The position numbers and the translations under genes were made by a program. From the NCBI GenBank assembly GCA_903929485.1, contig CAIYUY010000287.1, positions 38 to 64,037 on the forward strand: a DNA stretch of 64,000 bases. The letters run 5' to 3'. Each line of letters starts with the position of its first letter. The first letter of the stretch is position 1. Below the pieces are notes generated by a model. It ran no database searches. It had not been told where the DNA came from and saw only the letters and a program-made list of their open reading frames with translations. Positions 6,308-32,888 of the stretch are shown piece after piece. The stretch is from an uncultured Desulfuromonadales bacterium (GTDB lineage Bacteria > Desulfobacterota > Desulfuromonadia > Geobacterales > CAIOGM01).

Positions 6308-6551
6308 GGTTGGTTCCTCTTTACGGAGGAGTATCGCAGATATTCATGACAGAATACGTCGTAAACTTTTCAGCCTCACAAAAGAGCTAAGCACGAACAG
6401 CGGGAAAACGCAGCAAGAAAATAACGACGAAACATTTTAATCTTAAAGACGGCTCCCATCCCCTGGAGACACGACGAAAGAGTACGAATAACACTCTGAT
6501 TTCCTTCGTGAAACTTCGTCACCTTCGTGGAGGGAAGCTTTTGTGGATCAA

Positions 6552-6582
6552 TTGTAAACCTAAATCTGCTATCGGTTGACAA
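6552..6582. promoter_or_regulatory. BirA-type bio operator candidate: TTGTAAACC-N13-GGTTGACAA
   Basis: Imperfect inverted repeat matching the TTGTAAACC/GGTTTACAA half-sites of proteobacterial bio operators. It lies 44 nt upstream of the bioB ATG. Confidence 0.55.
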
Positions 6583-6625
6583 CTCTCCCGCCATATGATA
6601 TTCAAATTCATCGGGAGGAACAATC

Positions 6626-7621: not shown

Positions 7622-8340
7622 GCCGAGGGGTCTTTATCACCGGAACGGATACGGACGTGGGGAAGAGTGTTGTCGCGGCGGTCATCGCCCGGCTGGCGGC
7701 CATGGCCGGTCTGAACACCGGCGTCATGAAGCCGGTCACCAGCGGCTGCTCCCAGCGGGATGGGGTTCGTATCTCCCCGGACGCCGAGCTTCTGGCCTAT
7801 GGCGCCGGAATGGAGACGCTCTCTCCCCAGGCGACCCCGTATCTTTTTACAGCCCCGTTGGCGCCGTCGGTGGCCGCCGAGAAAGAGGGGGTCCGGATCA
7901 ACCTGGAAAAGATCGCCGGCGATTACGACTCCCTGGCGGCACGGCATGACTTCATGGTGGTGGAGGGGGCCGGCGGGCTCATGGTCCCCCTGGCGGGGGG
8001 GCTCCTGGTGGCCGACCTGATCTTGAGGCTGAATCTTCCCGTGGTCGTGGTGGCCCGGCCGGGGCTGGGAACCGTCAACCATACCCTTCTCACCTGTCTG
8101 GCGGCACGGCAGATGGGGATCTCCGTGATCGGGGTGGTCATCTCCGGCTTTCCCGACGATCCGGACGAAGCGGAAGCTTCCGCGCCCCATCTCATCGGCT
8201 CACTTTCCGGGGCGCCGCTCCTGGGAATCTTCCCCCGCATTGACCTGGCCGACCCTTGCCACGTGGTGGATGCCATCGTGGATCGTATCGTGAGGGAACC
8301 GTTGACCACCATCTTAAGAAAGGAGCTTGGCCTTGTCTGA
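7618..8340 (+). CDS. bioD: Dethiobiotin synthase
   Basis: 240 aa with the P-loop-like GTDTDVGKS. It overlaps bioB by 4 nt. Confidence 0.92.
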   Translation: MSRGVFITGTDTDVGKSVVAAVIARLAAMAGLNTGVMKPVTSGCSQRDGVRISPDAELLAYGAGMETLSPQATPYLFTAPLAPSVAAEKEGVRINLEKIAGDYDSLAARHDFMVVEGAGGLMVPLAGGLLVADLILRLNLPVVVVARPGLGTVNHTLLTCLAARQMGISVIGVVISGFPDDPDEAEASAPHLIGSLSGAPLLGIFPRIDLADPCHVVDAIVDRIVREPLTTILRKELGLV

Positions 8341-15653: not shown

Positions 15654-15693
15654 GGCATAGTAGGGGCACGGCGCGCCGTGCCCCTACTATGCC
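15654..15693. terminator. Perfect 40-nt palindrome GGCATAGTAGGGGCACGGCG/CGCCGTGCCCCTACTATGCC between convergent genes
   Basis: Read directly. It overlaps the higA stop codon (15687-15689). Confidence 0.7.
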
Positions 15694-16001
15694 GCTTGAA
15701 GCATCCGGATCTGCTCCAGTTCCCGGTTTAATTCTTTTCCCGCTTGCCACAGGTCAACCGCCCGTTGTGCGTTGAGCCAGAATTCAGGGCTGTTGCCGAA
15801 CAGTCGGGAAAGCCTTAACGCCATGGAAGGGCTCAGGGCGCGTCGTTCTCGGAGCAGTTCATTGATAGTCTGACGCGACACCCCAAGCGCTCGGGCCAAG
15901 GTGCCAACAGTTAATCCGTAGTCAGGCATATACTCTTCACGCAGCATGACGCCGGGATGAGTCGGGGGTATTTCACGTATGCCGGTATTGGGAATGTTCA
16001 T
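15687..16001 (-). CDS. higA: HigA-family antitoxin (XRE helix-turn-helix)
   Basis: HPGVMLREEYM and the HTH LARALGVSRQTINELLRERRALSPSMALRL are present, plus the FWLNAQ motif. The ATG at 16001 is preferred over the TTG at 16013. Confidence 0.9.
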   Translation of the reverse strand: MNIPNTGIREIPPTHPGVMLREEYMPDYGLTVGTLARALGVSRQTINELLRERRALSPSMALRLSRLFGNSPEFWLNAQRAVDLWQAGKELNRELEQIRMLQAA

Positions 16002-16009
16002 GATGGACC

Positions 16010-16291
16010 TCAATGATAATCGGTAATTTCCACGTCACAGGCGTCGCCATCTACCCAGTAGAAACAGATCCGCCACTGAGCGTTAATAGCTATGGAGTGT
16101 TGTCCGGAGCGGTCATCCTTTAACGCGTGGAGTCGATTGCTTGGCGGGACCTTGAGATCGTCAAGTTTTGACGCCAGGTCAATATATTCAAGTCGTCGGA
16201 TGGCGTGACCAGTGACATCAGGAGGAAGTCGTTTTGACCTTCCCGTTCTGTAGAGTTGCTCCGTATGTTTGTCCCCAAAAGAGCTGATCAT
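16010..16291 (-). CDS. higB: HigB toxin (RelE/ParE superfamily, plasmid maintenance killer type)
   Basis: 93 aa with FGDKHTEQLY...LHALKDDRSGQHSIAINAQWRICF...ITDYH. The toxin-first order is typical of higBA. Confidence 0.9.
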   Translation of the reverse strand: MISSFGDKHTEQLYRTGRSKRLPPDVTGHAIRRLEYIDLASKLDDLKVPPSNRLHALKDDRSGQHSIAINAQWRICFYWVDGDACDVEITDYH

Positions 16292-16518
16292 GCCGCTATT
16301 TTAACTTGTCACGTGATGCGTGTCAAGCGGGAGAGAACATTTGAAGCTGCGTGGTACACAAGGTTGTTATTGGCGAGCGATATTTTATTCTGGTAGTCGT
16401 TGGGTGCGCACGGCTTCATGGTGCGCGCTAAAAACCCGTATGCACCCTACGCTTGCTTATAAGGATTGTCATTCCCGAGGGTTTAATCGGGAATCCGGAT
16501 GTTGAAAACCATGGAACT

Positions 16519-16553
16519 AACGCTCCGCTTCCGATCTTCGGAAGCGGAGCGTT
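16519..16553 (-). terminator. Hairpin AACGCTCCGCTTCCGA/TCGGAAGCGGAGCGTT immediately 3' of pyc remnant 1
   Basis: Read directly. It occupies the same position relative to the stop codon as the terminators of the other two pyc copies, but has a different sequence. Confidence 0.65.
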
Positions 16554-16576
16554 TTCACTTGTCATTTGAAAGAGCG

Positions 16577-16755
16577 TTACGCCAGCACGATGAGGAGGTC
16601 TTCCTTCTTTACCTTTTCCGCTTCCTTGAACTTCACCTCGGCGATGACACTATCTTCCTTGGCTTTGGGGTTGGTCTCCATCTTTATGGCCTCGGTGACC
16701 ATGAGGACATCGCGCACGGTCACCGACCGGGCATTGCCGTTCAGTTCGAAATAAC
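16577..16755 (-). pseudogene. Pyruvate carboxylase 3'-end remnant 1 (biotinyl domain tail with an internal deletion)
   Basis: It translates to YFELNGNARSVTVRD fused directly to VLMVTEAIKMETN...LLIVLA*. About 45 codons present in the intact copy are missing. Confidence 0.85.
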
Positions 16756-16756
16756 T

Positions 16757-16852
16757 CTGCTGGAAGATGTCGATATCACCGGCGCCAAGGGGGTTCTCGT
16801 CAACATCTGCTCTGCGGAAAAAAATCGACTGACCCTGGAGTGCCGGTGCTGA
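16757..16852 (+). pseudogene. Short FtsZ-like fragment (LLEDVDITGAKGVLVNI...RL...)
   Basis: About 13 of 17 residues are identical to the FtsZ segment [17 protein letters not shown] as I recall it. The fragment abuts pyc remnant 1 and has no start codon of its own. Confidence 0.4.
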
Positions 16853-17213
16853 CCGGGAGCAATAAGGAGGGGGGCAGGCGATGGAGTTGAGGGTCTTCGG
16901 TGGGCTCCTCAGGTTCACCCGGGTGTGGGTGGAGCGGGAGGGTTTTACGGGGAAGTCGATGCTCTGGCAGTGGTTCTGCTCGGATTCCACCGACTTCACC
17001 GGGTTCGTCGGCCACGTTGCGGCGGAATTCGTCTGCATGATCGGGCTGCCGGAAGAATGCCGGAGTTTTGTTACGGCACAGCTCCGCGAGTTTTTGGGCA
17101 AGGCTTCCAGATACCCGGCTGATCCGCATAATGCACAAAATATCTTCTTGCTTCAGGTGTGTTTGATATGGTATGGAATTAAATCAACACATTGGCTGCA
17201 GTATGGAGGATGT

Positions 17214-18005
17214 ATGGGATTGATATACGAAAATAGTGAAAACAACTCAGTTATTGGTGATATTAACTGGGCTATGTCAACTACAGGTACAAGGATTGCA
17301 GGAGGAGTTGATGGATTTTTTCCACAAAATAGTAATGTTATTATTAAATTTAAAGGCAATGATGTCGATTGTAGGATATCGTTAGACAGTAAGCGTAGAA
17401 CTATTAGTTGGGGTAAGAAAAGCGTAATAGCTAAAACATTGCGTGATAAATTTGGTGCGGAAAAGACAGCTTATAGAGAAAAATCAGTAGGCTGCAATAT
17501 TCTTATTGAAAAAATAAAAAATAAATACCAATTAAAATTTATATTTAGTGGTGGTGCTGATAGTGTTGGGAACTCTACAGTTTTTTGTCCTAATCCAGAT
17601 GAAGATAAGGTGAAAAGAATTTTTGCCATTATCAATGAAAGAAAGGGGCAATCTGAGTTTAGAAGTAAATTGCTGCATGCTTATAATAATAAGTGTGCTG
17701 TAACTGGTTGTGATGCTGTTGACGCATTGGAGGCGGCACACATATACCCCTATAGAGGAGAGCAAACAAATCATATTACAAATGGTTTGTTGCTGAGGGC
17801 CGATATTCATTCACTATTTGACCAGTTATTATTGTCAATTTCAAATAATTACGAAATAATTCTTCACGATTCAATTAGGAACGGGTACTATGGCGAATTG
17901 CATGACAGCTTTATATCACTTCCTGAAGATAAAAATAGTCATCCAAGTAAAGAAGCATTACGACATAACAGAAGTTTGATAAGAATTAGCAAGTCTGATG
18001 ATTGA
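17214..18005 (+). CDS. HNH endonuclease (HNH_2-type C-terminal nuclease) with an unrecognised ~150-aa N-terminal domain
   Basis: RKGQSEFRSKLLHAYNNKCAVTGCDAVDALEAAHIYPY...TNGLLLRADIHSLFD. The AT-rich composition begins near 17130, and the ATG at 17214 follows GGAGGA. The track ORF start at 16881 lies in unrelated GC-rich DNA. Confidence 0.8.
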   Translation: MGLIYENSENNSVIGDINWAMSTTGTRIAGGVDGFFPQNSNVIIKFKGNDVDCRISLDSKRRTISWGKKSVIAKTLRDKFGAEKTAYREKSVGCNILIEKIKNKYQLKFIFSGGADSVGNSTVFCPNPDEDKVKRIFAIINERKGQSEFRSKLLHAYNNKCAVTGCDAVDALEAAHIYPYRGEQTNHITNGLLLRADIHSLFDQLLLSISNNYEIILHDSIRNGYYGELHDSFISLPEDKNSHPSKEALRHNRSLIRISKSDD

Positions 18006-18018
18006 GATGATTTGTGTC

Positions 18019-18058
18019 GTTAAGTCCCCATTTCGGCATGCCGAAATGGGGACTTAAC
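18019..18058. terminator. Perfect 40-nt palindrome GTTAAGTCCCCATTTCGGCA/TGCCGAAATGGGGACTTAAC after the HNH gene
   Basis: Read directly, 14 nt after the HNH stop. Confidence 0.75.
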
Positions 18059-18149
18059 AGACCGGAAAACAATAGCTCACATCGAAATAAAACGCAGTTT
18101 TGCCAAAATTTCTAATGAAACTGTTATTTTGGATGCATGATCCCCTCTC

Positions 18150-18869
18150 TCACCCCTCCCTCTCCGCATCGCTGACGGCAATGATTGACACCCGCCAATT
18201 CTGACCGAACGACTCATCCAGGTTGACCCCGATTAGTACATTGGCATCGCCGGCTGCATATTCGTGCAGAATCCTATTGACCGTGTCAAAATCATCCAGC
18301 GTCATATTGCTCGAACCGTATATGGTCGCCAAGAGGTGACAAAACCTTCCGTACCATATCTGATGGTCAATGGCACGCAGGGCATTGACCGCCGCATCCC
18401 GTGCGCCGGTCTCGCGACCGGCGCCGTACCCGATACCGAGCACTCCATCCCCGCCGCTTCCTGCGATGTATCTCACATCGGCAAAGTCGACGCAGACGAA
18501 ACCCATGTGCGTAATGAGATCAGTGCATGCCTGCACTGCCAGGCGAAGCAGCAGGATCTCCATGCCCTGTTTCGATATGAACTTTGCGTCATGTTTGTAA
18601 AGGGGGATGAGGCTGGTGCTCCCCACGGAGAGCCGCGTCACCGTTGCCGGCCAAGGGAGCGACTGCGGCAAATCGTTCGCTTGCAGAACGTCATCATGGC
18701 AGAGGGCGACCATGATCATCTTGTCAGAATTTTCTCCCACTCCCACGATGGCGCAGAGTTCCATTGCTAATGACGCGGCCTCCGCCCCCTCCTCCGCGCC
18801 TGTCCGACCGAGCCCCGCCACCAGTATCCGCGAGGGGAGCGGCCCAAGGTCTGCCATCTGTTCATTCAT
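18150..18869 (-). CDS. FtsZ-like protein lacking the N-terminal nucleotide-binding region
   Basis: 239 aa. LITHMGFVCVDFADVRYI...GIGYGAGRETGARDAAVNAL...MTLDDFDTVNRIL...ANVLIGVNLDES...WRVSIIAV aligns by eye to the FtsZ C-terminal domain. The tubulin signature region reads AGLGRTGAEEG instead of GGGTGTG, and about 90-100 N-terminal residues are absent. Confidence 0.75.
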   Translation of the reverse strand: MNEQMADLGPLPSRILVAGLGRTGAEEGAEAASLAMELCAIVGVGENSDKMIMVALCHDDVLQANDLPQSLPWPATVTRLSVGSTSLIPLYKHDAKFISKQGMEILLLRLAVQACTDLITHMGFVCVDFADVRYIAGSGGDGVLGIGYGAGRETGARDAAVNALRAIDHQIWYGRFCHLLATIYGSSNMTLDDFDTVNRILHEYAAGDANVLIGVNLDESFGQNWRVSIIAVSDAEREG

Positions 18870-18910
18870 CTGATTGCCTCCTGGTAACTATTCAGCACCC
18901 CTGTCCGTAC

Positions 18911-19050
18911 CCCTCACCCGGCCCTTCGGCTTCGCTCAGGTCAGGGCAATCCTCTCCCACAGTGGAAAGTGGAAAGAGGGTTTTCACCTTTCACCCCTTC
19001 GTGAGAGACCTGTCCTGAGCACGGCCGAAGGAGGGGACGGGGGTGAAGGG
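18911..19050. repeat. Long imperfect palindrome (arms of about 50 nt) just upstream of the FtsZ-like gene
   Basis: The left arm CCCCTCACCCGGCCCTTCGGCTTCGCTCAGGTCAGG pairs imperfectly with GTGAGAGACCTGTCCTGAGCACGGCCGAAGGAGGGGACGGGGGTGAAGGG. Confidence 0.6.
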
Positions 19051-19084
19051 CGGTCTGCTGCGATGCTGAACAGGTATTCCTGAA

Positions 19085-19246
19085 GGGGGGTAGTCGGTTA
19101 GCTCCACCTATCGTGCATTGTGATGTCTTTCTGGGTATTCTCAGATCCGCAACCGCGTAACATATCGTCATTACGGTATTTTATATCGAGTGAACAACCA
19201 TGCTGAATGAATTCCATTCCAGGTGGAGCTAACCGACTACCCCTTT
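19085..19246. mobile_element. MITE-like element: 23-bp perfect terminal inverted repeats flanked by an 8-bp direct duplication TTCCTGAA
   Basis: GGGGTAGTCGGTTAGCTCCACCT at 19087-19109 and its exact reverse complement at 19221-19243. TTCCTGAA occurs at 19077-19084 and 19247-19254. There is no coding capacity. Confidence 0.6.
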
Positions 19247-19529
19247 TTCCTGAAATAGCACGGCCATGCGTCATGGTGTGACGCATCCAAACGTTGCCAT
19301 GCAAAAAAAGCTGGGAGGCGGCAGATGTACGACAGCGGGAAGAGCCGATCACCATGCGGTTTTGAAGACCGTGGGGGGTGACGGGGTGGGCTCAATGCAA
19401 TCATCGCTATGATTGACGCAGGGATTGCCTGTGAGGTGATCGTTGGAAAAAGTAATTCGGCTGAAGCGATTGTCCGTTCATCATACCTCTTCCGGAGCTG
19501 TGATTCGCCCGCCGTTGACATGAGGAAAC

Positions 19530-19563
19530 GCAAGAAGCCCCCAACGATGCGGGGGCTTCTTGC
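19530..19563 (-). terminator. Hairpin GCAAGAAGCCCCC/GGGGGCTTCTTGC 3' of pyc remnant 2
   Basis: Homologous in position, and partly in sequence, to the pyc terminator at 32831-32856. Confidence 0.7.
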
Positions 19564-19592
19564 GTTAGGGATAAGGACGGATTGTGTTGCGG

Positions 19593-20188
19593 TCAGGCCA
19601 GCACAATCAGCACGTCTTCCTTCGCCACCTTTTCCCCTTCCTTAAACTTTACCTCGGCAATGACGCTGTCTTCCTTGGCCATGATGTTGGTCTCCATCTT
19701 CATCGCCTCGGTGACCATGAGGACGTCCCCCCCCCTTCACCGCATCTCCGGCCTTGACCTTGACCTTGAGCACCCTGCCCGGCATGGGGCACCCAGATGC
19801 TTGGCGTTCCCCTTTTCGGCCTTCACTCGCTCTTTCTCATCGGTAGCAGCGGAGAAATCGCGTACGGTCACCGACCGGGCATTACCGTTCAGCTCGAAAT
19901 AAACCTGCCGGGTGCCGTCGCCCTGAACCTTGCCGATGGCGTTGAGCTTGATGATGAGGGTCTTTCCCGCCTGGATGTCCAGGGAGGTCTCCTGTCCCGG
20001 CTCCAGACCGTAGAAGAAGATGGGGGTCGAAATGAACGAGGTGTCGGAATACAGTTGGCAGTGCTGGTCCAGTTCCGGGTAAACGTGGGGATAGAGGATG
20101 TAGGAGATGAGCGCCTTGTCGTCGATCTTGTGGCCCACCTTCTCTTCCAGTTTCTCCCGTTCGACCTCAAACTCCACCGGTTCCAGCA
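19593..20188 (-). pseudogene. Pyruvate carboxylase 3'-end remnant 2 (last ~198 codons, frameshifted)
   Basis: It reads LEPVEFEVEREKLEEKVGHKIDDKALISYILYPHVYPELDQH...VYFELNGNARSVTVRD. The frame is then lost (indels near 19730-19800) before ...VLMVTEAMKMETN...VLIVLA*. It is about 87% identical to 32889-33030 by manual alignment. Confidence 0.9.
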
Positions 20189-20631
20189 TTCCCTGAAACT
20201 GATTCAAACCGTTTTAAATCGGTACGAACCCAGCTGAAGAGTGCTTCCACCGTAGCGGTTTTACTCCTCTGATTTTTAAGGCTACATTCCCACACAACGG
20301 CAATTCTCCATCCTAGTTTTTCAAGTTCAGCGAGATTCCGTTTATCACGCTCGACGTTCGCAGCAATTTTACCGTTCCAAAATTCTTTATTTGTAGCAGG
20401 CAACTTGGATTTCGAGCATCCTTCGTGATGGTGCCAAAAGCAGCCGTGAACAAATATGACAATACGGTACTTCGGAAGAAGGATATCGGGTTTTCCAGGA
20501 AGATTTTTGCGATGCAGACGAAATCGAAAACCAGCGGAATGAAGTGCAGATCGAAGGGCAAGTTCGGGAGCAGTTCCTTTCGTCCTGATCCGGCTCATCA
20601 TTCGGCTTTTCTGCGCAGAAGGTTGTGCCAT
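20167..20631 (-). CDS. vsr: Very short patch repair endonuclease
   Basis: KSRMMSRIRTKGT.PE..LR, GKPDILLPKYRIVIFVHGCFWHHH, NKEFWNGKIAANVERDKRN and GWRIAVVWEC are present. The ATG at 20631 is preferred; the track ORF start at 20682 overlaps the upstream gene. Confidence 0.9.
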   Translation of the reverse strand: MAQPSAQKSRMMSRIRTKGTAPELALRSALHSAGFRFRLHRKNLPGKPDILLPKYRIVIFVHGCFWHHHEGCSKSKLPATNKEFWNGKIAANVERDKRNLAELEKLGWRIAVVWECSLKNQRSKTATVEALFSWVRTDLKRFESVSGNAGTGGV

Positions 20632-20638
20632 ATTCTTA

Positions 20639-22252
20639 CTAATTACCATGTCTGCGAAGCCATTCTGATTCATCAAGACCAATGCGAGTTATTTTATTCA
20701 GAAACTTCATAGCAATTCTCTGCGCCTGACCACTCCTCAGTTGCGCTAAAAAAGTGAACTTAACATTTGAAGTTTCATTTTGCTTGCCATACAATGGTTC
20801 GCCGATTTTAACAATAACTTTATCGTTGCCTTGTGATGCAGAAAACCAGAATACTTCCAATTTAGAAATATCTTCACTAGTTTTAAGATAAACAAAATTG
20901 TCATCTCCATCGGAGGCGATAATGTTGAATCCTTTAATGTTTCCGTCATCTATAGGATTAAAATCCTTCTTAACCAGTTTTATAAAAATAAATTTATTTA
21001 CACACTCAGCTTTAAGCCTCCCAGAATCGCACAAAGGCTGTACACACAAAAAAAATTCTTCGTTTTCATTCTTTAAAATGCTACCTAAACTTAAAAACGT
21101 TGCAGCATTATTATTTATAGCATCGGAAAATGCGTGAGAAGTGAGCTTCGCAAATATAGCTTGATTGACAAAGTCAACTTCTGGCGTTTCTTCTTTAGAA
21201 AAAAAAGTGACAAGACTTTTTGTTGTATCTTTACTCCATTTGTTAATTGCATCCTTCTTTTTCAGTTCAGTATCAGAATTTAAATTTTCATGCATCCATT
21301 TTGTTATTCCACTTAAAATCCACTGTTTTCGCATATCGTTGTCAATTTTAATTGAACCAATCTTATTAGCACTAAATTCTTTACAAGGAATATCGCCACA
21401 TTTAGCGTCTACCCAAGCGTTCAAAGTGCCACAGGAAAGATATTTGGTTATTGCTTCATTACCTCTTATGAGATCCTCAAAGGTTGCGGCCATAAGCTCT
21501 GTTACGAAAACATCTGCATCTTCGGGGCGAGATAAGTAGCATCTATGTGACAAAAAAGCTGGATCGTGTCGAGATGAGTATAACGAGAGAATGCGATGGG
21601 AATTATCTCTAATAACTTTTATAGCAGCTAAAGCTGCGGAAGGCATAAGACCCGAGTGCATATCTGAAAATTTTTCATAGATACGTTCAGGTAGCCCTTC
21701 ATAGGCCCCTGCGCATGTTTTGCTTGCATAAAAAACAGTTACGTGGTCGCTGCTTAAAGTATCTATATCTATGTTACTAATATTTTCAGCAGAGAAAATA
21801 CAAACCAAAACCTCTCTATCCTTATTTACGTGTTTTAGTTTACTGACTATTGCTTGTGCTGTTTCCCCGACTCCAACAGTCCCTAATTTATCTTCCATTT
21901 GCCAATCAAGTACAATCACATCTGCCTTAATTGACAGATTTACTACCTTACTCACTAATATATTTTTCTGTTCTTCTGACGTTATTTTATTAGTATATAT
22001 TGGACTACAAAGCATTCCTTTTTCCGAGCAAGCCTGTGATAACTTCTTTATATCGAGAATATGATTGATATCCTCTCGATTTTCACCTGGGTCCTGTAAT
22101 GGCACAATTTCAAGCAATGATTCTTTAAGCCCATTTTCAGGCTGATCCATAACATTTGCTGTCGTCTTTTCGTAGGGTTGGTCATCTACAAAAAGTACAG
22201 TGCCAATAAAATCTTGAGCTAATGCCTGCATATGGGCTGCAAATGCTGTCAT
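20639..22252 (-). CDS. Receiver (REC)-like domain protein with an unrecognised ~380-aa C-terminal region
   Basis: 537 aa. REC landmarks occur in order: VLFVDDQ, ADVIVLDWQM, VLVCIFSA, VFYASK. The ATGA overlap with the upstream GHKL gene indicates translational coupling. Confidence 0.7.
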   Translation of the reverse strand: MTAFAAHMQALAQDFIGTVLFVDDQPYEKTTANVMDQPENGLKESLLEIVPLQDPGENREDINHILDIKKLSQACSEKGMLCSPIYTNKITSEEQKNILVSKVVNLSIKADVIVLDWQMEDKLGTVGVGETAQAIVSKLKHVNKDREVLVCIFSAENISNIDIDTLSSDHVTVFYASKTCAGAYEGLPERIYEKFSDMHSGLMPSAALAAIKVIRDNSHRILSLYSSRHDPAFLSHRCYLSRPEDADVFVTELMAATFEDLIRGNEAITKYLSCGTLNAWVDAKCGDIPCKEFSANKIGSIKIDNDMRKQWILSGITKWMHENLNSDTELKKKDAINKWSKDTTKSLVTFFSKEETPEVDFVNQAIFAKLTSHAFSDAINNNAATFLSLGSILKNENEEFFLCVQPLCDSGRLKAECVNKFIFIKLVKKDFNPIDDGNIKGFNIIASDGDDNFVYLKTSEDISKLEVFWFSASQGNDKVIVKIGEPLYGKQNETSNVKFTFLAQLRSGQAQRIAMKFLNKITRIGLDESEWLRRHGN

Positions 22253-25218
22253 TTATTACTCCCACCGGATTTAGTATTAATCACAAAACATGCACCCACA
22301 TCAGGAGCAGGCGTCTGGATTTCTATTTCACAGTCAACTCCCTTTAATGCTTGTTTTACAATATACAAGCCAAGTCCGGCTCCACCGGGCTTTCGAGAAA
22401 ATCCGGGCTCGAATATTCTCTCGGTATCACGAACTGATACTCCGGGGCCACTGTCTTTAACATAAACGTTACCATCTCGATAATCTAGTGTAATCGACCT
22501 CGGAATAGGCTGATCTTTAAGCCAAAATATCGCGTTGTCAACAAGGTTCACAAACACCGGGTAATAAACTGAGCGAAAAGATAATTGCTTCATTGATTTG
22601 AAGGGTAGACTTGGCTTTATCTCTATTTTGTGTCGTTCCAGGCGGTTTTTGAATAGATCAGAGATGAAGTTGAATATTTCATGACCGTAAATATCTTCTT
22701 TGGATCGTCTCATTCTACGTTGCAGCGGAGCAAACAAGTTAAGATAACCGTCAAGATGTTCAAAGCTCGTACGCAAGTTTCCGTAAATAGGCTGTAGTTT
22801 GGTGTTTAGATCCGCCCATGATTTGAGCACGTTTATATTGTCGCGGATTTTTATGACTTGACTGTTAAATTCATGCTGAATGACACTCACAGCTTGGCCC
22901 ATCTGCATAAGTTCGATATCTTTTGTCTTCTCCTCTCGTAAAGCCAGATATTCAGCCTCAAGAGCAGCGACTTCTTCAGTTAGGGATTGTTCTTCGTCTG
23001 CATCAAAACTGACCCCTTGCAACTGTTCACGAATATGTACAAGTGAATTTTTCGTGGTTGCTGCAATGCGGTTGATTCTGTCTTCAAGTTCGAGCTTTGC
23101 GTTGACCAGTTCCGATTCATCAAGCGCTGTGAAGTCCGTCCGGCTAAATTGTGACATTACTTCACGCGTTGTTTTTTGGACTTCTGCAAGCGAGTTCTTA
23201 ACTACTTTTGACACCTTTCGTTGAAAATCAATGACAGTTTTTCGTACAGCACGCCCTTCTGCAGTGGATTCCTGCTCTTTTTGTCGAATCAAGTTACTCA
23301 AACTTACTTCAAATCGCTGGCGTTGATCTATAAAAACATCACATGCTCTTTGAGCATCTTGTGCTACTTGCTCTAATTGTCTACGAGTCGGCTGAAAAAT
23401 TTTTTCATCTAAATCTAACATTATTCTATTGTACCGGACCCAATCATCTTCAATGCTTTTCTTGAAAGAAACGACCTTTGGTCGATTTATTTCATAGGAA
23501 GATCGCCATTTTTGATATTCTGCATTTGAATTCCGTTCTGCCTCCATAAATGCAACGACCATGCTGTTTGATGCTGAACGGGTAAAAACGTTACGATAAT
23601 TTTCTGCTATACTCACCAATAGCTTAGTAGCTTCTTTTTGCGGTTCACCTTCATTTAAACGGACAAAAAACTTGTTTAGATCATTGCAAAATAGCTCTTT
23701 AGAACCTTTTAGGCGTTTTTCACGCTGCTGCAATGTTTTAGCGCGCTTTTTATTTGCTTCAGAATAATTAGCCCATTCCGAATTGATTGAGGTTTTTCGA
23801 AAAAAATCAGCAGTCAATTGCATTAAAAAATTTACTAAAATATCTCTCAATTGTCGATATGCTTTATTTTCTCGAAAACCTTCACGTCCAGCTTTTTCCT
23901 TCAAACTGTTATTACTTAGCTGAGAAATATCTACATAACCAAATAAATTCCTGTGCGAAAAATAGTAGTATCCAGCGCTTTTCGTTCTACGATACTCTAT
24001 ACCAAGCCAGTCATAATCTGAGCTGCCATAAGGTAGAATTCTAATGTCATCTTTGTAGATATAGACACCACCTAAACGCTGCGTTTTTGAAAGAATAACT
24101 GCATGTTGATCTAATGGTATATTAGTTGTGTCTCCTTCTGGTTGGATAATTGCCAAACTTACTTTAAATGGACCACACTCGGTTGGGATACCCGATCTGT
24201 TCGGCCATGTGATAACATGGTCTTCATATTCTTTTTTGCCAAATATGTTTACTTTTCCTTGAAATTGTCCATAGTTATCAAACTCACCCTCAATATGATG
24301 ATCTGCAAGTAAAAACTCGTCGGGGGTGAAAAAATCTTCTTTCTTTATTAGATTTCGCACAACACCGTCAACCATATGATCAAAAAACGATACCTTGATC
24401 ACATCTCGTTGATCATGATTTTTCATAGTATTTGAAAAGCCTAAAAGATGACGTTGAAGCGGTCCAGAGATTTCTTGAGCAGCAGTCCCAGGCATTCTCT
24501 CATCAATTGCAGCGTCAAGAGATTCATCTGTCGGCACGATGTAAAAATGTGTACCGTGCCCGGTATCCTTCAAAGAGAGATTTTTTTCGGAGAACCTTGC
24601 TACATCAATATCCTCCTGAAGTTGGGCGATATCAGTCAAAATGCGCTCAACGATCTTACGGGTTGCGACATTTCGTTCACTTAAATGAGATGCTGTAGAT
24701 GAAAATTCCGCAGTCAATTCATTGATATCGATTTTTGTAGGTATCTGTCCTTCGGGAAAGGTCTTAACTGGAATTTCAATTTCATCAAGATCGACACCTG
24801 GACATTCGAAAATTCCCCAGTGAATATATGCACAAACCAAATCAGATAATTTTTCATTACGGCATGCCCTCGTGAGAACAATCACCTGGCTTCCTATTGC
24901 AGCAATAGAGAGACGACCAATCCCTTTTTCACCTAATACAGGTCGAGGAGTCTCACCGGCGGGTACGTACGGTGTGTCCAGAACTTTGCTTTCCGTACCA
25001 AGAGTAAGCCATTTGTTGCGAAAATCATCTTCGCTCATGCCAATGCCGTCATCTCGCAATACAAACAGGCGCGTCTTACGGAAATAATCAGCTACCACAC
25101 GTTCGGCATAAGCATCATGAGCATTTTTGAATAGCTCGTTTATTGCGTTTGGAATACCGGCTATCTGCTGACGACCAAGCATGTCAAGTGCTCGTGCCCG
25201 AGTCTTAAATTTGGCCAT
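22249..25218 (-). CDS. Dual GHKL ATPase protein: an N-terminal MORC/Hsp90-like HATPase, a long coiled-coil middle, and a C-terminal histidine-kinase core (DHp-like H-box plus CA domain)
   Basis: The N-terminus has ELFKNAHDAYA, LRDDGIGMS and GEKGIGRLS. The C-terminus has VSVIQHEFNSQV, then about 115 residues later LVDNAIFW, KDSGPGV and GGAGLGLYIV. Confidence 0.8.
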   Translation of the reverse strand: MAKFKTRARALDMLGRQQIAGIPNAINELFKNAHDAYAERVVADYFRKTRLFVLRDDGIGMSEDDFRNKWLTLGTESKVLDTPYVPAGETPRPVLGEKGIGRLSIAAIGSQVIVLTRACRNEKLSDLVCAYIHWGIFECPGVDLDEIEIPVKTFPEGQIPTKIDINELTAEFSSTASHLSERNVATRKIVERILTDIAQLQEDIDVARFSEKNLSLKDTGHGTHFYIVPTDESLDAAIDERMPGTAAQEISGPLQRHLLGFSNTMKNHDQRDVIKVSFFDHMVDGVVRNLIKKEDFFTPDEFLLADHHIEGEFDNYGQFQGKVNIFGKKEYEDHVITWPNRSGIPTECGPFKVSLAIIQPEGDTTNIPLDQHAVILSKTQRLGGVYIYKDDIRILPYGSSDYDWLGIEYRRTKSAGYYYFSHRNLFGYVDISQLSNNSLKEKAGREGFRENKAYRQLRDILVNFLMQLTADFFRKTSINSEWANYSEANKKRAKTLQQREKRLKGSKELFCNDLNKFFVRLNEGEPQKEATKLLVSIAENYRNVFTRSASNSMVVAFMEAERNSNAEYQKWRSSYEINRPKVVSFKKSIEDDWVRYNRIMLDLDEKIFQPTRRQLEQVAQDAQRACDVFIDQRQRFEVSLSNLIRQKEQESTAEGRAVRKTVIDFQRKVSKVVKNSLAEVQKTTREVMSQFSRTDFTALDESELVNAKLELEDRINRIAATTKNSLVHIREQLQGVSFDADEEQSLTEEVAALEAEYLALREEKTKDIELMQMGQAVSVIQHEFNSQVIKIRDNINVLKSWADLNTKLQPIYGNLRTSFEHLDGYLNLFAPLQRRMRRSKEDIYGHEIFNFISDLFKNRLERHKIEIKPSLPFKSMKQLSFRSVYYPVFVNLVDNAIFWLKDQPIPRSITLDYRDGNVYVKDSGPGVSVRDTERIFEPGFSRKPGGAGLGLYIVKQALKGVDCEIEIQTPAPDVGACFVINTKSGGSNK

Positions 25219-26311
25219 GAATCGCCTCTAGGTGTTTGATAAAATGATTTCCCATGGCAAGCGCTAGATCAACAGGCACAGCATTTCCTATCTGTCTCGC
25301 CATGGAGTTTAAATTACCGGTAAACTCAAAATCATCGGCAAACCCTTGTAGACGCGCCGCCTCTCTAACACTGATGGCGCGGTCTTGCACCGGGTGTCCG
25401 AATCTGCCGTTTGAATAACTGATGCACCGTGTTGTTAGCCCTGGCGCCGGATAATCCCATCGGAGCCTACCATAACAGTCAGTGTGTCCGGAATGTGTTT
25501 TATCATTTTTATCTGTACGAGTGTAGCATGCAGGCCAGAGTTCCTTCGGCCAGTTATTACGGCCACCACCATTGTGAGCCGACGTTTTAATTCGTTCCAT
25601 ATTGAGATCAGACAACATAGCGGCACGATGATTCAGCACGCCACCACCAACATAACTCTCACCGGCAGCTATCACAGGTAGATCAAAGATTGCCTTATAA
25701 ACCGTTTCATATGGGGTATCAGCATCTCTTCCGTGGGTAGGTTCAGGAATGGATATTTCACCGTGCCTGCTTGCCAAAAAAACAAAACGCCTACGTAGTT
25801 GCGGCGCACCATAGTCTTGAGCAGCAACGACGCGACAGGCGATTTTGTAATTCATTCCTTCCAGGAGCTTTTTGAATTCAGGGAAAGGGCCTTGATCCTG
25901 TTTGGATATTTTTTGTAGTCCTGGAACATTTTCTACAAAGACAAAATCCGGCTGACACTCTTTTACTATTGAGCCGAAATACGTTAACAAATCCTTTCGA
26001 TCATCACTCTTACTACTTCCTGTAAATTGTTTGGTAAATGGCTGACAAGGAGCACAACCACAGAAAAGTTTGTAATTTCTATCACACTTATCTAATATCT
26101 GCTGAAAATCGGAAGCAGTTAGCTCTTTAATACTTTTATCGCAGAAAACAGTCGATGGAAAATTCTTGGTGAAGGTGTTCCTTGCGTCCTGATCAACATC
26201 AAGAGCAAAGGCGATATCCATCCCGGCTTTCTGAAATCCACTGCTCGTCCCGCCGCAACCGCAGAAGAAATCAAAAACCGATATATTTCTGTTTTTAATG
26301 GTTTTTATCAT
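25205..26311 (-). CDS. dcm: DNA (cytosine-5)-methyltransferase
   Basis: Motifs FDFFCGCGGTSSGF (I), GCAPCQPFT (IV), FVFVENV (VI), QLRRRFVF (VIII) and GNAVPV (X) are present. Confidence 0.95.
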   Translation of the reverse strand: MIKTIKNRNISVFDFFCGCGGTSSGFQKAGMDIAFALDVDQDARNTFTKNFPSTVFCDKSIKELTASDFQQILDKCDRNYKLFCGCAPCQPFTKQFTGSSKSDDRKDLLTYFGSIVKECQPDFVFVENVPGLQKISKQDQGPFPEFKKLLEGMNYKIACRVVAAQDYGAPQLRRRFVFLASRHGEISIPEPTHGRDADTPYETVYKAIFDLPVIAAGESYVGGGVLNHRAAMLSDLNMERIKTSAHNGGGRNNWPKELWPACYTRTDKNDKTHSGHTDCYGRLRWDYPAPGLTTRCISYSNGRFGHPVQDRAISVREAARLQGFADDFEFTGNLNSMARQIGNAVPVDLALAMGNHFIKHLEAIHGQI

Positions 26312-26474
26312 CTGATTCCATCATGGCGACAAACGCCGACTATAAACTTAATAGCTATCATATTCCTCCCCTTTTATACCATTCCAGCGCTAAAACAGGA
26401 AGAGCAGACAATTACAACACGAAAAATAAAAACTCGCATTAACCACTCAGATCACAACTCCATCATCCTCTTTC

Positions 26475-27698
26475 TCACCCTTGTACCCGCGATAAATCCA
26501 GCTCCCCCTTGAACGCCTTCCGGCTCACTACGCCATAGAGGTTTTCCAGTTCGGTCAGGTTCTGCTGGTAGCGGGTTTTGATGCCTTCGACTTTTTCAAC
26601 AATTGCCGCGAATTGGTTTTGGAGGGCGATTGGAGGGTAAGGAAATTCCAATATATCTAGAACACCTGTATTCATGTGTGTAAAAGTGCCATCAGGACCA
26701 GTTTTCAAACGACCAACACGTCCCTTGCAATACATCATAAGGGAGACAACATAAAGCGGTAGCAACTTTGATCCAAGCCGCAATCTTATCAAATTGGTGC
26801 TTATGATTCCGTGACCGGCATCCGTCTTTGCGACACACATCTTACCCACTGTGCCGGCACGAGAAATGACGATATCGCCATCAAGAACTGAATACGAAGT
26901 AAGCTGTCGGTATTTCTTCTCTGTTATCCACATCCGAAACGGTAGAATCATTCGTCCGGAAGGGTCAATATTATCCATGTTCCAGACAGGAACACCGGCT
27001 TTTACCAATTCTTCTTTTTTGAGGGCGCTACCAAATGGACCACATTTTGTACCGTCTTTCTGGCTACTATAAAATTCAGAGAGTTTTCTTACTGGAAATT
27101 TTTTTGGATTGACTATCGGATCACCAAACATCTCCAGGAAAACGCTCTTTAGCAGGTCATCCAGTTGCAGCAGGTTTTCCTTGCGCCGGGCGATCAACGT
27201 TTCAATTTTGCCAAGCAGATGGGCAATACGGATTTGGTCGTCAAGGGGCGGGAGAGGAATTTGCGATTCAAAAATAATTCTATCCGAGACAGCAGGATAG
27301 CTCGCCCCAGTAGCTCTATTCACCATCACATTTATAAATAGAGATGACTTTACCCATTGAAACAGGTACGTCCCGTCTATTGATTTATTAATCGGTCTGA
27401 GTACGCAAAAACCTGTTGAGGCAGTTGCACCGTCAAGTTCTGCAGGCACTCGTGCAACGCTGTTCAAATTAGGACGCACAGTTGAGACAAGAACATCACC
27501 ATATCTAACTATTTGACGGGCACGGCTTGGTGCATCTCCATTGGCTATTTCACGTACGCCTACAATCCTTTTGAAATTCTGGTCAACGGCGCTGAGGTCA
27601 ATGTAGTTGAAAACTTCATCCTTGGCGCCACGCAAAGGGTTCCAAGTCTTGGCACGAATAACCACATTGCCAATAGTCTGTGTCGTACAACCATTCAT
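26475..27698 (-). CDS. hsdS: Type I restriction-modification specificity subunit
   Basis: 407 aa with two target-recognition halves separated by the conserved helical spacer (LPPLDDQIRIAHLLGKIETLIARRKENLLQLDDLLKSVF) and a matching C-terminal helix. Confidence 0.9.
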   Translation of the reverse strand: MNGCTTQTIGNVVIRAKTWNPLRGAKDEVFNYIDLSAVDQNFKRIVGVREIANGDAPSRARQIVRYGDVLVSTVRPNLNSVARVPAELDGATASTGFCVLRPINKSIDGTYLFQWVKSSLFINVMVNRATGASYPAVSDRIIFESQIPLPPLDDQIRIAHLLGKIETLIARRKENLLQLDDLLKSVFLEMFGDPIVNPKKFPVRKLSEFYSSQKDGTKCGPFGSALKKEELVKAGVPVWNMDNIDPSGRMILPFRMWITEKKYRQLTSYSVLDGDIVISRAGTVGKMCVAKTDAGHGIISTNLIRLRLGSKLLPLYVVSLMMYCKGRVGRLKTGPDGTFTHMNTGVLDILEFPYPPIALQNQFAAIVEKVEGIKTRYQQNLTELENLYGVVSRKAFKGELDLSRVQG

Positions 27699-27773
27699 TT
27701 CATCACACCCCGCAACTTCTTATCGCTCACGTTGATTTCCCTTCGACTTAGCTCAGGGAACGGACGCAGTATC

Positions 27774-29438
27774 TCATCCGATCATCCCCCGCAACTCCAG
27801 CAACTCCCTGACTATCCCACTACTCACTCCACCCAACTCCTCTTCACTCGCCTCACCCACTTCGGACTTTAACAACTTTTCCAGAATTACCACCGCATTT
27901 TCGTAGAATACCTCTTCAAAAACATCGACCTTGTATCGGCTCAAGCTCAGATCATACCCCTCGGCCTCTATCTCGGAGCGTGGAACGACAAAACATTTCC
28001 GAGTCCGATCGGAATTGTTCTCCGAACTTCGACCATGATATCGGGCGACAATCTCCTGCAGATCGCCATACCCTTCCTGCTTGCTCCGCTTGTCGTCCAG
28101 CGAATAGCCGTCGGCGGCCATCTCATAAAACCAGACCTGCTCGGTGGCCGGTTTACTTACCTTCTCCTTTGGTCCCCAGACCTTGGTGAAGAGCAGAATG
28201 GCGGTGCTCACCCCGGCGTAGGGCTTGAAGACGCCGCTGGGCATGGTGATGACCGCCTGCAGGTCGCACCGCTCCACCAGCAACTGCCGCAGGTTCTTAA
28301 AGGCGCCGCCGGAGCCGAACAGGACCCCTTGCGGAACGATGACGCAGGCGGTTCCCCCCTTCTTCAGCAGGCGAAAGATGTTCTCCACAAAGAGGAGTTC
28401 TGTCTTGGTGGTGGCCAGACTCAGGTTCTCGTTGATGTCCCCCTTGTCGATGCTCCCGGTAAAAGGGGGATTGGCCATGATGATGTCGTACTTGGCCTCT
28501 TCGATGAAGCTCTTGCTCAGAGTGTCCTTGTAGTCGATGAGCGGCTTGTCGATGCCGTGCATCATCAGGTTCATGAGCCCCAAACGAACCATGGTGCTGT
28601 CGATATCGTAACCGAAAAGAGAACCGTTGAGGATTTCCTGAGCCTGCTTGGTAAGCCCGGCGGCGATGGAGGTCCGGACAAAACCGTCTTCATCGATGGG
28701 AAGATCCTTTGCCCCGGCCCGAAGCGCCAACCGGGTGACGATGTACTGATACGCCCCCAGCAGGAAGCCGCCGGAACCGCAGGCCGGGTCGGCGATGCGA
28801 TGTCCCAGCTGCGGTTGCGCCAGTTCGGCCATGAGCTTGATGATATGGCGCGGGGTGCGAAACTGACCGTTCTTCCCGGCGGCGGCGATCTCCGACAGGA
28901 GCATCTCGTACACATCCCCCTGGATATCCTGGAACGCCTGCCCCTTTTCATGGGAATCCTTCTCCATGATATCGAAGATTTCGTCGATGGTCTTCACCGC
29001 CTCCACCAGCAGGGCCGGCTTGGGGATGATGAAAACCGCGTTTTTCATGTGCCGGGAAAAGTTGGATTCCGCGCCGTTCAGATCCTTGAGAAAGGGAAAA
29101 ACCTTCCCCTGCACATGTTGCAACATCTCTTCCGCCTGCATCCGTTTGAATTCGCTCCACCGAAGGGTTCGCTTCTCCACGGCAAAGGGTTTTTGATCGG
29201 CCTCGGGCTTGTCGAGATGTTCCGGCGGAATCCAGACGCCGCTGAATCGGGAACCATAGCTGTCGCCGGTAAATTCGGCATCGGCCAGCTTTTTTTGATC
29301 CAGCTCGTCCAGTTGTTTCATGAACAACAGATAGGTGATCTGCTCGATGGCGGTGAGCGGGTTGGAGATGCCGCCGCTCCAGAATTTGTTCCAGAGCTGG
29401 TCGATCTTGGATTTCAGTTCAGGGTTGTTTTGCAGCAT
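27774..29438 (-). CDS. hsdM: Type I restriction-modification N6-adenine methyltransferase subunit
   Basis: HsdM N-terminal region (LWNKFWSGGISNPLTAIEQITYLLF), AdoMet motif IADPACGSGGFL and catalytic IIMANPPF. Confidence 0.95.
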   Translation of the reverse strand: MLQNNPELKSKIDQLWNKFWSGGISNPLTAIEQITYLLFMKQLDELDQKKLADAEFTGDSYGSRFSGVWIPPEHLDKPEADQKPFAVEKRTLRWSEFKRMQAEEMLQHVQGKVFPFLKDLNGAESNFSRHMKNAVFIIPKPALLVEAVKTIDEIFDIMEKDSHEKGQAFQDIQGDVYEMLLSEIAAAGKNGQFRTPRHIIKLMAELAQPQLGHRIADPACGSGGFLLGAYQYIVTRLALRAGAKDLPIDEDGFVRTSIAAGLTKQAQEILNGSLFGYDIDSTMVRLGLMNLMMHGIDKPLIDYKDTLSKSFIEEAKYDIIMANPPFTGSIDKGDINENLSLATTKTELLFVENIFRLLKKGGTACVIVPQGVLFGSGGAFKNLRQLLVERCDLQAVITMPSGVFKPYAGVSTAILLFTKVWGPKEKVSKPATEQVWFYEMAADGYSLDDKRSKQEGYGDLQEIVARYHGRSSENNSDRTRKCFVVPRSEIEAEGYDLSLSRYKVDVFEEVFYENAVVILEKLLKSEVGEASEEELGGVSSGIVRELLELRGMIG

Positions 29439-29452
29439 TGAAGTCCTCTCTT

Positions 29453-29485
29453 AACCACGGAAAACACTGAAAGCACGGAAATCAC
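29453..29485. repeat. Copy 1 of the motif AACCACGGAAnACACyGAAAGCACGGAAA flanking the GxxExxY gene
   Basis: Read directly. The same orientation is seen at 29871-29903. Confidence 0.85.
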
Positions 29486-29862
29486 AAAACAAATCGCTCA
29501 ATCTGCGTCTGTGAGTGACTGCCAAAATTTATCAATAGTCCCAGTTTGAATTTTGTTGCTTTCAGATAGTTGATTACTTGTGCCTTGTGTTCCGGTGCGA
29601 CTTCCTTAACAGATTTTAGCTCCAGGATAATCTGTCCGTAACAAATCAGATCTGGCTTGTAGATCTGGAGGAGACATTCACCCTTATAGCTGAGTTTCAA
29701 TTCGGGCTGTGAAACAAAGGGGACGCCTTGCGCCTTGAGCTCTTTTTCAAGGCATTCCTGATAAACAGCTTCCAGAAATCCGCATCCCATTTCCCGATAA
29801 ACTTCAAACACCGCACCGCGAATGGCAAACGTCTCTTTCTCATAAAGTAAGTCCATTGCCAC
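29482..29862 (-). CDS. GxxExxY-family protein (PD-(D/E)XK-like small protein)
   Basis: The family-defining pattern is GAVFEVYREMGCGFLEAVYQECLEKEL, followed by DLICYGQIILELK. The ATG at 29856 may be the real start. Confidence 0.85.
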   Translation of the reverse strand: MAMDLLYEKETFAIRGAVFEVYREMGCGFLEAVYQECLEKELKAQGVPFVSQPELKLSYKGECLLQIYKPDLICYGQIILELKSVKEVAPEHKAQVINYLKATKFKLGLLINFGSHSQTQIERFVL

Positions 29863-29870
29863 ACCTCATT

Positions 29871-29947
29871 AACCACGGAAGACACCGAAAGCACGGAAAA
29901 GACCGTATGGTTTTAAAAATTCAGTGCATTCAGTGTATTCCGTGGTT
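29871..29947. repeat. Copy 2 (29871-29903, direct) and copy 3 (29920-29947, inverted) of the AACCACGGAA...GCAC motif
   Basis: Read directly. Copies 2 and 3 can pair with each other as a hairpin. Confidence 0.85.
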
Positions 29948-29964
29948 GAAAATTATTCAGCTCC

Positions 29965-32775: not shown

Positions 32776-32830
32776 ACATCTTTACTACTCTACCCCTTAA
32801 GTCAAGTCAACGGGATAATGAAAGAAAAAA

Positions 32831-32856
32831 GAAGCCCCCGACGAATCGGGGGCTTC
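32831..32856 (-). terminator. pyc terminator hairpin GAAGCCCCCGA/TCGGGGGCTTC followed by a T-tract on the coding strand
   Basis: Read directly, 33 nt after the pyc stop. Confidence 0.8.
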
Positions 32857-32888
32857 CGTTGCCGCAGATCAGGTGAAGTGGCCGCCGG

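Follow-up and report, generated by a model that had tools for sequence, protein, structure and literature searches.

A methylase-linked kinase and receiver cassette in an uncultured Desulfuromonadales bacterium, a plausible phosphorelay-gated defence module

In a 64,000-nucleotide stretch of contig CAIYUY010000287.1 (assembly GCA_903929485.1) from an uncultured Desulfuromonadales bacterium, hereafter called the window, the genes dcm and vsr bracket two genes that encode a kinase-like protein of 989 amino acids (aa) and a receiver protein of 537 aa. The question raised by this locus is what such a pair does in a place where a restriction endonuclease would be expected. A defence role, as advanced in the original prediction made for this DNA, is plausible for a cassette that is linked to restriction-modification (R-M) genes, co-conserved, horizontally acquired and provided with intact phosphotransfer residues. 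That the cassette serves defence is very probable; as to its mechanism, we give about even chances to an R-M-linked, phosphorelay-gated defence module in which the C-terminal domain of the receiver is the effector. The family to which the cassette belongs brings together DNA methylation and two well-studied themes, the MORC/MutL-type ATPases and phosphotransfer by two-component systems, and, though the family is large, only one distant relative of it, the Ambrosia system, has been experimentally tested. Taken alone, the window copy, from an uncultured bacterium, adds one more ordinary example to an arrangement already on record; what is new in our study is that the core is defined as three genes, that the output domain, which has no structural neighbour, is modelled with confidence, and that an empty site gives direct evidence of the acquisition of the cassette.

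Composition of the cassette and its catalogued family

The four genes of the cassette, dcm, the kinase-like gene, the receiver gene and vsr, are all encoded on the minus strand between positions 20167 and 26311 of the window. The dcm gene (25205-26311) codes for a C5-cytosine DNA methyltransferase of 368 aa, the kinase-like gene occupies positions 22249-25218 and the receiver gene positions 20639-22252, and vsr (20167-20631) codes for 154 aa counted from the ATG at 20631, with its stop at 20167. The positions of the open reading frames (ORFs) bear out the tight coupling of co-directional genes that had been described for this locus: dcm and the kinase-like gene overlap by 14 nucleotides (25205-25218), the sequence ATGA at 22249-22252 is common to the end of the kinase-like gene and the start of the receiver gene, and 7 nucleotides separate the TAG of the receiver gene from the vsr ATG. 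Gene callers prefer a vsr start about 40 nucleotides upstream of this ATG, which overlaps the receiver gene. The block had also been seen as AT-rich, and its GC content is indeed 0.36-0.46 over 20.5-27 kb compared with 0.54-0.58 in the flanks. A scan for promoters and terminators was uninformative and gave fewer promoter-like sites than were found in shuffled sequence.

The two outer proteins had been taken for a Dcm with the motifs of C5-methyltransferases and a canonical Vsr, and both assignments are well founded, with scores above the family cut-offs. Dcm matches PF00145 (E=1.6e-57), TIGR00675 (146.6 bits against a cut-off of 100.65) and the PADLOC model MTase_II (E=5.7e-89), and it contains motifs I (FxGxG), IV (PCQ), VI (ENV), VIII (QxRxR) and X (GNAVP). 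Vsr reaches 152.4 bits with TIGR00632 (cut-off 97.85) and aligns with the Vsr of Escherichia coli (1cw0) at E=2.5e-38, with the PD, HGCFWHHH..C, NVERD and VWEC motifs, which include its catalytic and Zn residues, in register. Vsr proteins are nicking endonucleases that act in the very-short-patch repair of T:G mismatches.

The 989-aa protein contains two Bergerat folds, both of them invariant in an alignment of 11 homologues, and its matches to HATPase_c_3, HEF_HK and HATPase_c all lie above the Pfam gathering cut-offs. Its N-terminal region (aa 1-190, 24649-25218) is a MutL/MORC-type GHKL ATPase head (HATPase_c_3 at aa 24-123, E=5e-13) with N32 and D35 of motif I, DDGIGM at aa 56 and GEKGIGRL at aa 96, motifs that do not vary among the 11 homologues; a profile search of the PDB gives it weak matches to MutL and MORC4. 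The alignment of homologues delimits a conserved middle module and a linker after the head (aa ~191-770, 22909-24648). The module carries the motif GGxYxYxxxIRxLPYG..D.D...E..R.K at aa ~383-450, its aa 341-450 align with the Ambrosia protein AbrB, and the linker that follows it is long, poorly conserved and mostly helical; possibly, the module is an S5-like transducer and the linker a coiled coil.

Judging by its domains and motifs, the C-terminal third of this protein is a bona fide core of a dimerisation/phospho-acceptor (DHp) domain and a catalytic ATP-binding (CA) domain. The DHp domain is of the HEF_HK type (aa 772-838, 22705-22905; PF19191, E=3.7e-27), and the histidine-kinase CA domain (aa 888-980, 22279-22557; PF02518, E=9.6e-15) has an N box (NLVDNA, aa 891), a G1 box (DSGPG, aa 922), an F box and a G2 box (GGAGLGL, aa 945). 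In the PDB profile search this core matches ThkA (3a0r) at 1.6e-14 and also HK853. The H box VIQHEFN, which had been reported as apparently intact, is so: H782, E783 and F784, together with S786, are invariant in the 11 homologues. The protein is soluble by the crude test of a maximal Kyte-Doolittle mean over 19 residues, which is 1.25 and so below 1.6. It should be mentioned that D922 of the G1 box (window ~22453-22455) has Asn in its place (NNGP) in 9 of the 11 homologues that were aligned, and that Asp occurs only in the window and its closest relative.

The GHKL head also bears on the alternative that the cassette is a classical type II 5-methylcytosine (5mC) R-M system, in which the 989-aa protein would be a restriction endonuclease similar to HgiDII and BbrUII and the receiver an accessory, a reading that we consider very improbable. 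Residues 9-187 of the protein match NF050001, the model of the BbrUII/HgiDII restriction enzyme (E=5e-18), PADLOC-DB v2 gives a weak REase_II match to the head (E=2e-5), and a bracket of dcm and vsr is typical of 5mC R-M cassettes. However, the NF050001 match is limited to the shared GHKL head, covering model positions 8-186 of 659 and no nuclease part, and reaches 64.9 bits against a cut-off of 550; the remainder of the protein is a DHp/CA kinase core and not a nuclease; and the receiver gene is invariably coupled to the kinase gene. The HgiDII/BbrUII type II enzymes and the paraMORC ATPases do resemble the window protein in that they begin with a GHKL head of the MutL/MORC type and occur in the context of R-M or defence, and in HgiDII-type systems this head is paired with a C5-methylase, as in the window cassette, and often also with Vsr. 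In HgiDII/BbrUII and in GHKL-Shedu the head is fused to a nuclease, whereas in the window protein a histidine-kinase core is joined to it and a separate receiver provides the output. The GHKL-Shedu protein VcSduA ('paraMORC3') was rejected as a counterpart, as its head is fused to a DUF4263 nuclease, unlike that of the 989-aa protein.

The original prediction knew of no description of a kinase-plus-receiver version of such cassettes, and on this point it has to be corrected. Exactly this arrangement was described by Bellieny-Rabelo, Pretorius and Moleleki in 2021 (Genome Biol Evol 13:evab024; PMC8011034), who also defined both Pfam families, HEF_HK (PF19191) and Response_reg_2 (PF19192). Their work, which is comparative genomics without experiments, found receiver-like and kinase-like genes linked at 91.6% over 644 regions, with a dominant kinase architecture of HATPase_c_3, HEF_HK and HATPase_c ('group 1'). 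In their regions a C5-methylase usually lies upstream and Vsr is most often directly downstream of the receiver gene, an arrangement that they called the most prevalent; HNH_2 is the commonest nuclease domain near receiver genes, and R-M domains are enriched in the neighbourhood (PMC8011034). The same authors proposed that paraMORC ATPases were the ancestors, and they raised, as a speculation, a regulatory connection with R-M systems. With the same group 1 kinase, a Response_reg_2 receiver without any other known domain, the same gene order and soluble proteins, the window copy differs in nothing essential, and this likeness of domains and order identifies it as a member of the HEF_HK/Response_reg_2 family.

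The output domain of the receiver and the conserved core

The Response_reg_2 receiver domain extends over aa 15-184 of the 537-aa protein (21701-22210), with PF19192 matching at aa 15-160 (E=4e-19, 69.9 bits against a cut-off of 27) and a variable insert at aa 26-63. The residues that had been read as DD...VLDWQM...S...K are present as a pocket formed by D23, D24, the acceptor D116 (in VLDW), S154 and K178, and D23, D24, D116 and K178 are kept at 94-100% in 153 diverse members of the receiver family. A full-length AlphaFold2 (AF2) model showed the (beta/alpha)5 pattern; it was built from 14 sequences, was poor (pLDDT 63) and was set aside. By the same crude hydropathy test the protein is soluble (maximal mean 1.46). 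Between them, the two central proteins of the cassette present the H, N, G1, F and G2 boxes and the phospho-acceptor pocket of canonical two-component systems, and no known output domain was found.

The remainder of the receiver protein (aa 185-537, 20642-21700) is a family-specific output domain, which was modelled with confidence by AF2 from an alignment of 127 diverse sequences (pLDDT 91.2, pTM 0.86). The model consists of a helical subdomain that carries R215, D230, H236 and W280, a variable insert (aa 285-372), a beta-rich subdomain with the invariant motif C403-x-Q-P-x-C408-D409-x-x-R412, and a C-terminal tail with the motif R523-x-G-x-x-E-x-E530-W-x-R533, which is very conserved yet modelled with lower confidence. 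The numbered residues, together with G390, Q405, P406, G525 and W531, are invariant or near-invariant in the family, and the polar and Cys residues among them are of the kind that is typical of an active or metal-binding site.

Comparison of this model with the PDB and BFVD by Foldseek gave no match at E<=1e-3, which leaves the output domain without a neighbour among the solved and viral structures in these databases. The best match, a MazF/CcdB-like barrel (E=0.12, TM 0.54-0.57 on the target), was rejected as too weak. The sequence-profile search of the PDB retrieved no relative of the domain, a Pfam search of six diverse output domains at E<=10 brought up no match consistently, and the receiver protein has no match in PADLOC-DB v2 or in NCBIfam. 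A profile of the output domain alone retrieves only the same architecture of ~540 aa, so domain shuffling gives no hint of its function. The cassette had been described as one with no recognisable nuclease. For the 989-aa and 537-aa proteins this stands, as Pfam, NCBIfam, PADLOC, PDB-profile and Foldseek searches revealed no nuclease fold in either of them; it does not stand for the locus as a whole, since Vsr nicks DNA, an HNH_2 gene is found 2.2 kb away and a type I HsdR is encoded upstream.

The properties of the output domain also bear on a second alternative, a purely regulatory two-component pair. According to it, the kinase would sense an intracellular cue (infection, stress or nucleotide pools), the phosphorylated receiver would turn the transcription of dcm, vsr and nearby restriction genes on or off, and any killing would be left to separate nucleases (Vsr, HNH_2, type I); we regard this as doubtful, though it is the main rival. 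A helix-helix-beta-hairpin in the variable region of the output domain could be a winged helix, and there is a weak Pfam match to WH_RGF3 (E=0.07). On the other hand, no known DNA-binding domain can be detected in the confident model, and because of this the 537-aa protein does not resemble an ordinary transcription factor, an identity that had been named as evidence against a defence role. Moreover, an output of 350 aa greatly exceeds a typical DNA-binding output in size and in conservation, and it contains invariant Cys, Gln, Asp and Arg motifs.

Co-occurrence of the four families elsewhere, on whose absence the original prediction was to fall, was examined by a neighbourhood survey of 12 loci taken from a one-genome-per-species collection, and the families proved to be co-conserved. 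The kinase gene precedes the receiver gene in all 12 loci, and dcm, kinase and receiver genes are adjacent and on one strand in each of the ten loci with enough sequence, which span Desulfuromonadales, Bacteroidia, Chitinophagaceae, Saccharibacteria and Gammaproteobacteria; the trio has the same order in Klebsiella. The gene that comes after the receiver gene varies: it is Vsr in the window and in loci L001, L002 and L012, HNH_2 followed by Vsr in L003, a NOV_C-type PD-(D/E)xK gene in L006, and an McrB-like gene in L005 and L007, and there is none in L008, L010 and L011. This variation shows that the conserved core of the system is formed by dcm, the kinase and the receiver, and that Vsr is an accessory. 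In the three trio-only loci there is no separate nuclease gene beside the trio, so, if killing or cutting occurs in them, the effector must be within the three proteins. These loci count against the purely regulatory pair, and the variable nuclease genes that often follow the receiver gene in other loci count in its favour.

The two loci of Bacteroidia with McrB-like genes (L005, 11572-18564, and L007, 11547-14493) contain extra C5-methylases and an McrB-like AAA_5 gene after the trio, as well as a Fic gene in L007; methylases are thus found beside putative modification-dependent restriction genes in one cluster.

The divergence of the dcm module is discordant with that of the kinase/receiver module. 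The proteins of L004 are identical to those of the window at 70% for Dcm, 39% for the kinase and 27% for the receiver, and those of L001 at 52%, 76% and 48%, respectively; across phyla, identity is 37-40% for the kinase compared with 22-29% for the receiver. A conserved kinase with an exchangeable dcm resembles, we infer by analogy, conserved motor subunits with exchangeable specificity subunits. An exhaustive profile search placed 1,744 clusters at 50% identity in the family, 1,013 of them at E<=1e-30. The family is present in bacteria and archaea, and it is rare on the plasmids, phages and viral contigs that were searched.

A near-identical remnant of the system was observed at ssrA in 573 of 5,426 complete E. 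coli genomes (~10%), as exemplified by L019 and by L033 (E. coli A11 chromosome), positions 5122-8590. It comprises an integrase, an intact receiver of 582 aa, a kinase of 572 aa without the GHKL head, and an IS3 at the point of truncation, and it has no dcm; PGAP labels its genes 'ATP-binding protein' and 'response regulator receiver domain'.

A phosphorelay to the output domain and the comparison with Ambrosia

In the phosphorelay-gated module that we propose, Dcm, whose enzyme class is clear from its sequence, would methylate host cytosines and thereby mark self DNA. The GHKL head and the middle module of the soluble 989-aa protein would sense, in the cytoplasm, the state of the DNA or an infection, as suggested by the position of these domains and by MORC/MutL biology. 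Sensing would control the DHp/CA core and its autophosphorylation at H782, a chemistry with which the intact and invariant motifs are consistent, and the phosphoryl group would then pass from H782 to D116 of the receiver, a transfer for which the intact residues and the translational coupling of the two genes argue. Phosphorylation would release the 350-aa C-terminal domain as the effector, and our guess is that its activity may be that of a nuclease or another toxic or DNA-directed one. Vsr would have its usual accessory role, the repair of T:G mismatches that arise from the deamination of 5mC, outside the conserved core. Given that the kinase is strongly conserved and dcm is exchangeable, the methylase may, speculatively, supply sequence specificity, in the manner of Mod in type III systems or of HsdS/M in type I systems. 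The cassette lies in an insertion of 17.2 kb that close relatives lack and that also carries a type I R-M system and HigBA, a location that supports the defence reading.

A more specific version of this proposal is tentative, and we think it rather unlikely. In it, the C-terminal module of 350 aa would be a phospho-gated effector of new fold (e.g. a nuclease or a DNA/RNA toxin) centred on the invariant site C-x-Q-P-x-C-D-x-x-R, and the trio would be a self-contained restriction-like system in which a MORC-type clamp reads the DNA or its methylation state and licenses killing by His-to-Asp phosphotransfer, with no nuclease fused to the clamp itself. If a phosphorelay does license restriction, it would be a new control logic for the biology of R-M and defence, and it would also give a bacterial handle on DNA sensing by MORC-type heads.

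The relative on which experiments have been reported is Ambrosia from Pseudomonas aeruginosa (bioRxiv 10.1101/2025.09.30.679545), a cluster that consists of the XRE regulator AbrR, the N6-methylase AbrA, the kinase-like AbrB, the 209-aa receiver AbrC and the HNH nuclease AbrD. All components are required for phage defence, and mutants in the Bergerat Asn (N40A) and in the receiver Asp (D60A) each lose it (10.1101/2025.09.30.679545). AbrB contains HATPase_c_3 and HATPase_c; a HEF_HK match is on record for a different member of the AbrB gene family only (10.1101/2025.09.30.679545). By BLASTP, aa 4-450 of the 989-aa protein match within the 399 N-terminal residues of AbrB (E=3e-14), so the two proteins are homologous. 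AbrC, in turn, has no detectable similarity to the profile of the receiver family (hhalign probability 0.2%) and no Pfam match at E<=0.01.

The two systems are alike in that each cluster encodes a methylase, a receiver, a nuclease and a kinase-like protein with two GHKL domains. Ambrosia has an N6-adenine methylase, the HNH nuclease AbrD and the regulator AbrR, whereas the window cassette has a C5-methylase and Vsr; AbrC, with 209 aa, lacks the output domain of 350 aa that is found in the window receiver of 537 aa, and AbrB has 747 aa compared with 989 aa. The only HNH gene near the cassette belongs to the HNH_2 subfamily and lies 2.2 kb away on the other strand, and the one HTH_3 gene, that of HigA, is located at the distal edge of the island. 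Since AbrC, the class of the methylase and the nuclease all differ, the window cassette is a relative and not a member of Ambrosia.

Regulation by the two-component pair is the reading that was offered for the family in 2021 (PMC8011034) and for Ambrosia in 2025, where reporter genes of the cluster were infection-induced (10.1101/2025.09.30.679545). Against its extension to the window stands the finding that AbrC is unrelated to the 537-aa receiver, and for this reason the transcriptional model of Ambrosia need not transfer.

It is important to note that several observations weigh against the proposal of a receiver-borne effector. First, in many relatives the receiver gene is followed by additional nuclease or type IV genes (HNH_2, NOV_C, McrB-like), so the effector may sometimes, or always, be a separate protein. 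Second, the divergence of Dcm tracks that of neither the kinase nor the receiver, which is awkward for a classical cognate R-M pair. Third, in some 10% of the complete E. coli genomes the receiver persists with a head-less kinase and without dcm, which indicates, if anecdotally, that the receiver is not intrinsically lethal. Fourth, nothing firmer than the weak MazF/CcdB-like match hints at an effector activity. Finally, in Ambrosia methylation by AbrA left phage DNA unprotected, and its authors incline to a model in which the two-component pair controls transcription upon infection (10.1101/2025.09.30.679545). The lack of protection in Ambrosia and the discordant divergence of Dcm also bear on the masking of self-toxicity by Dcm, which the original prediction put forward and which is hypothetical.

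Two further defence systems were compared with the cassette and rejected. Detocs is a defence system in which a phosphorelay runs from a cytoplasmic kinase to a receiver-effector; no component of the cassette has a PADLOC match to it, and Detocs has no methylase, another kinase sensor and another effector, a nucleoside phosphorylase. MADS consists of different genes and has an N6-methylase.

A strain-specific island around the cassette

The cassette forms part of a strain-specific, chromosomal defence island of 17.2 kb (15688-32888) located between the pyruvate carboxylase gene pyc, which is intact at 32889-36335, and an isochorismatase gene, with blastn breakpoints at 32889 and 15687. Metagenomic relatives with a pyc of at least 90% identity have isochorismatase-FabMG-DnaB directly after this gene, and in the close relatives L022-L024 the empty site measures only ~110 bp between pyc and the isochorismatase gene. 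The island was horizontally acquired, and while the original prediction had argued this from composition alone, the empty site in close relatives at the island breakpoints demonstrates it directly, in addition to the GC contrast. No integrase or transposase is present within the 17.2 kb.

Starting from pyc, the island contains a type I R-M system, the cassette, a copy of the pyc 3' end, an FtsZ_C-like gene, an HNH_2 gene, a second pyc remnant and HigB/HigA. The 3' end of pyc therefore occurs in three copies that are ~86-92% identical: the intact one at 32889-33484, a displaced one at 19593-20188 and a shorter remnant at 16579-16711, which was detected by blastn and tblastn. The displaced copy, on the minus strand and supported by blastn, tblastn and a PYC_OADA match, is ~86-88% identical to the intact one and begins 21 nucleotides beyond the stop of vsr. 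The insertion layer to which the cassette belongs has its inner edge at this copy. The three 3' ends suggest successive layered insertions at one hotspot, each of which brought its own replacement pyc 3' end.

The island contents are relevant to a third alternative, which we judge improbable: that the cassette does not serve defence and is either an epigenetic or stress-signalling module that senses methylation state or DNA damage, or a selfish addiction cassette that stabilises the island. In the same island, at its distal edge, a HigB-like toxin (93 aa) and a HigA-like HTH_3 antitoxin (108 aa) are encoded on the minus strand at 15687-16013 and 16010-16291, with a 4-nucleotide overlap. MORC-family proteins act in chromatin and epigenetic control, and the Pectobacterium orthologues were found through their in planta induction under stress (PMC8011034). 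These arguments are countered by the consistent presence of the family in defence and R-M contexts and by the phage defence given by its relative Ambrosia; besides, the rarity of the family on plasmids and phages argues against a role in plasmid addiction.

Directly upstream of the cassette and on the same strand lies the type I R-M system (26475-32775), which probably is an independent system within the same island. Pfam identifies in it hsdS (26475-27698), hsdM (27774-29438) and hsdR (29965-32775), and a small PDDEXK_3 gene (29482-29862) sits between hsdM and hsdR. The GC content of hsdS is 0.44-0.46, compared with 0.54-0.58 in hsdM and hsdR, and this difference suggests that the specificity gene was exchanged.

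The HNH_2 endonuclease gene (16881-18005, plus strand; PF13391, E=8e-15; GC 0.376) shares the AT-richness of the cassette and lies 2.2 kb from it, on the opposite strand and in a different insertion layer, and a functional link between the two is possible. Its ORF opens with ~110 codons that are GC-rich and resemble read-through of non-coding DNA, so translation probably begins near aa 112, at ~17214. Between the two pyc remnants, a GC-rich ORF of 239 aa (18150-18869, minus strand) matches the C-terminal domain of FtsZ only (E=1e-7) and represents a tubulin-like gene that is truncated or divergent.

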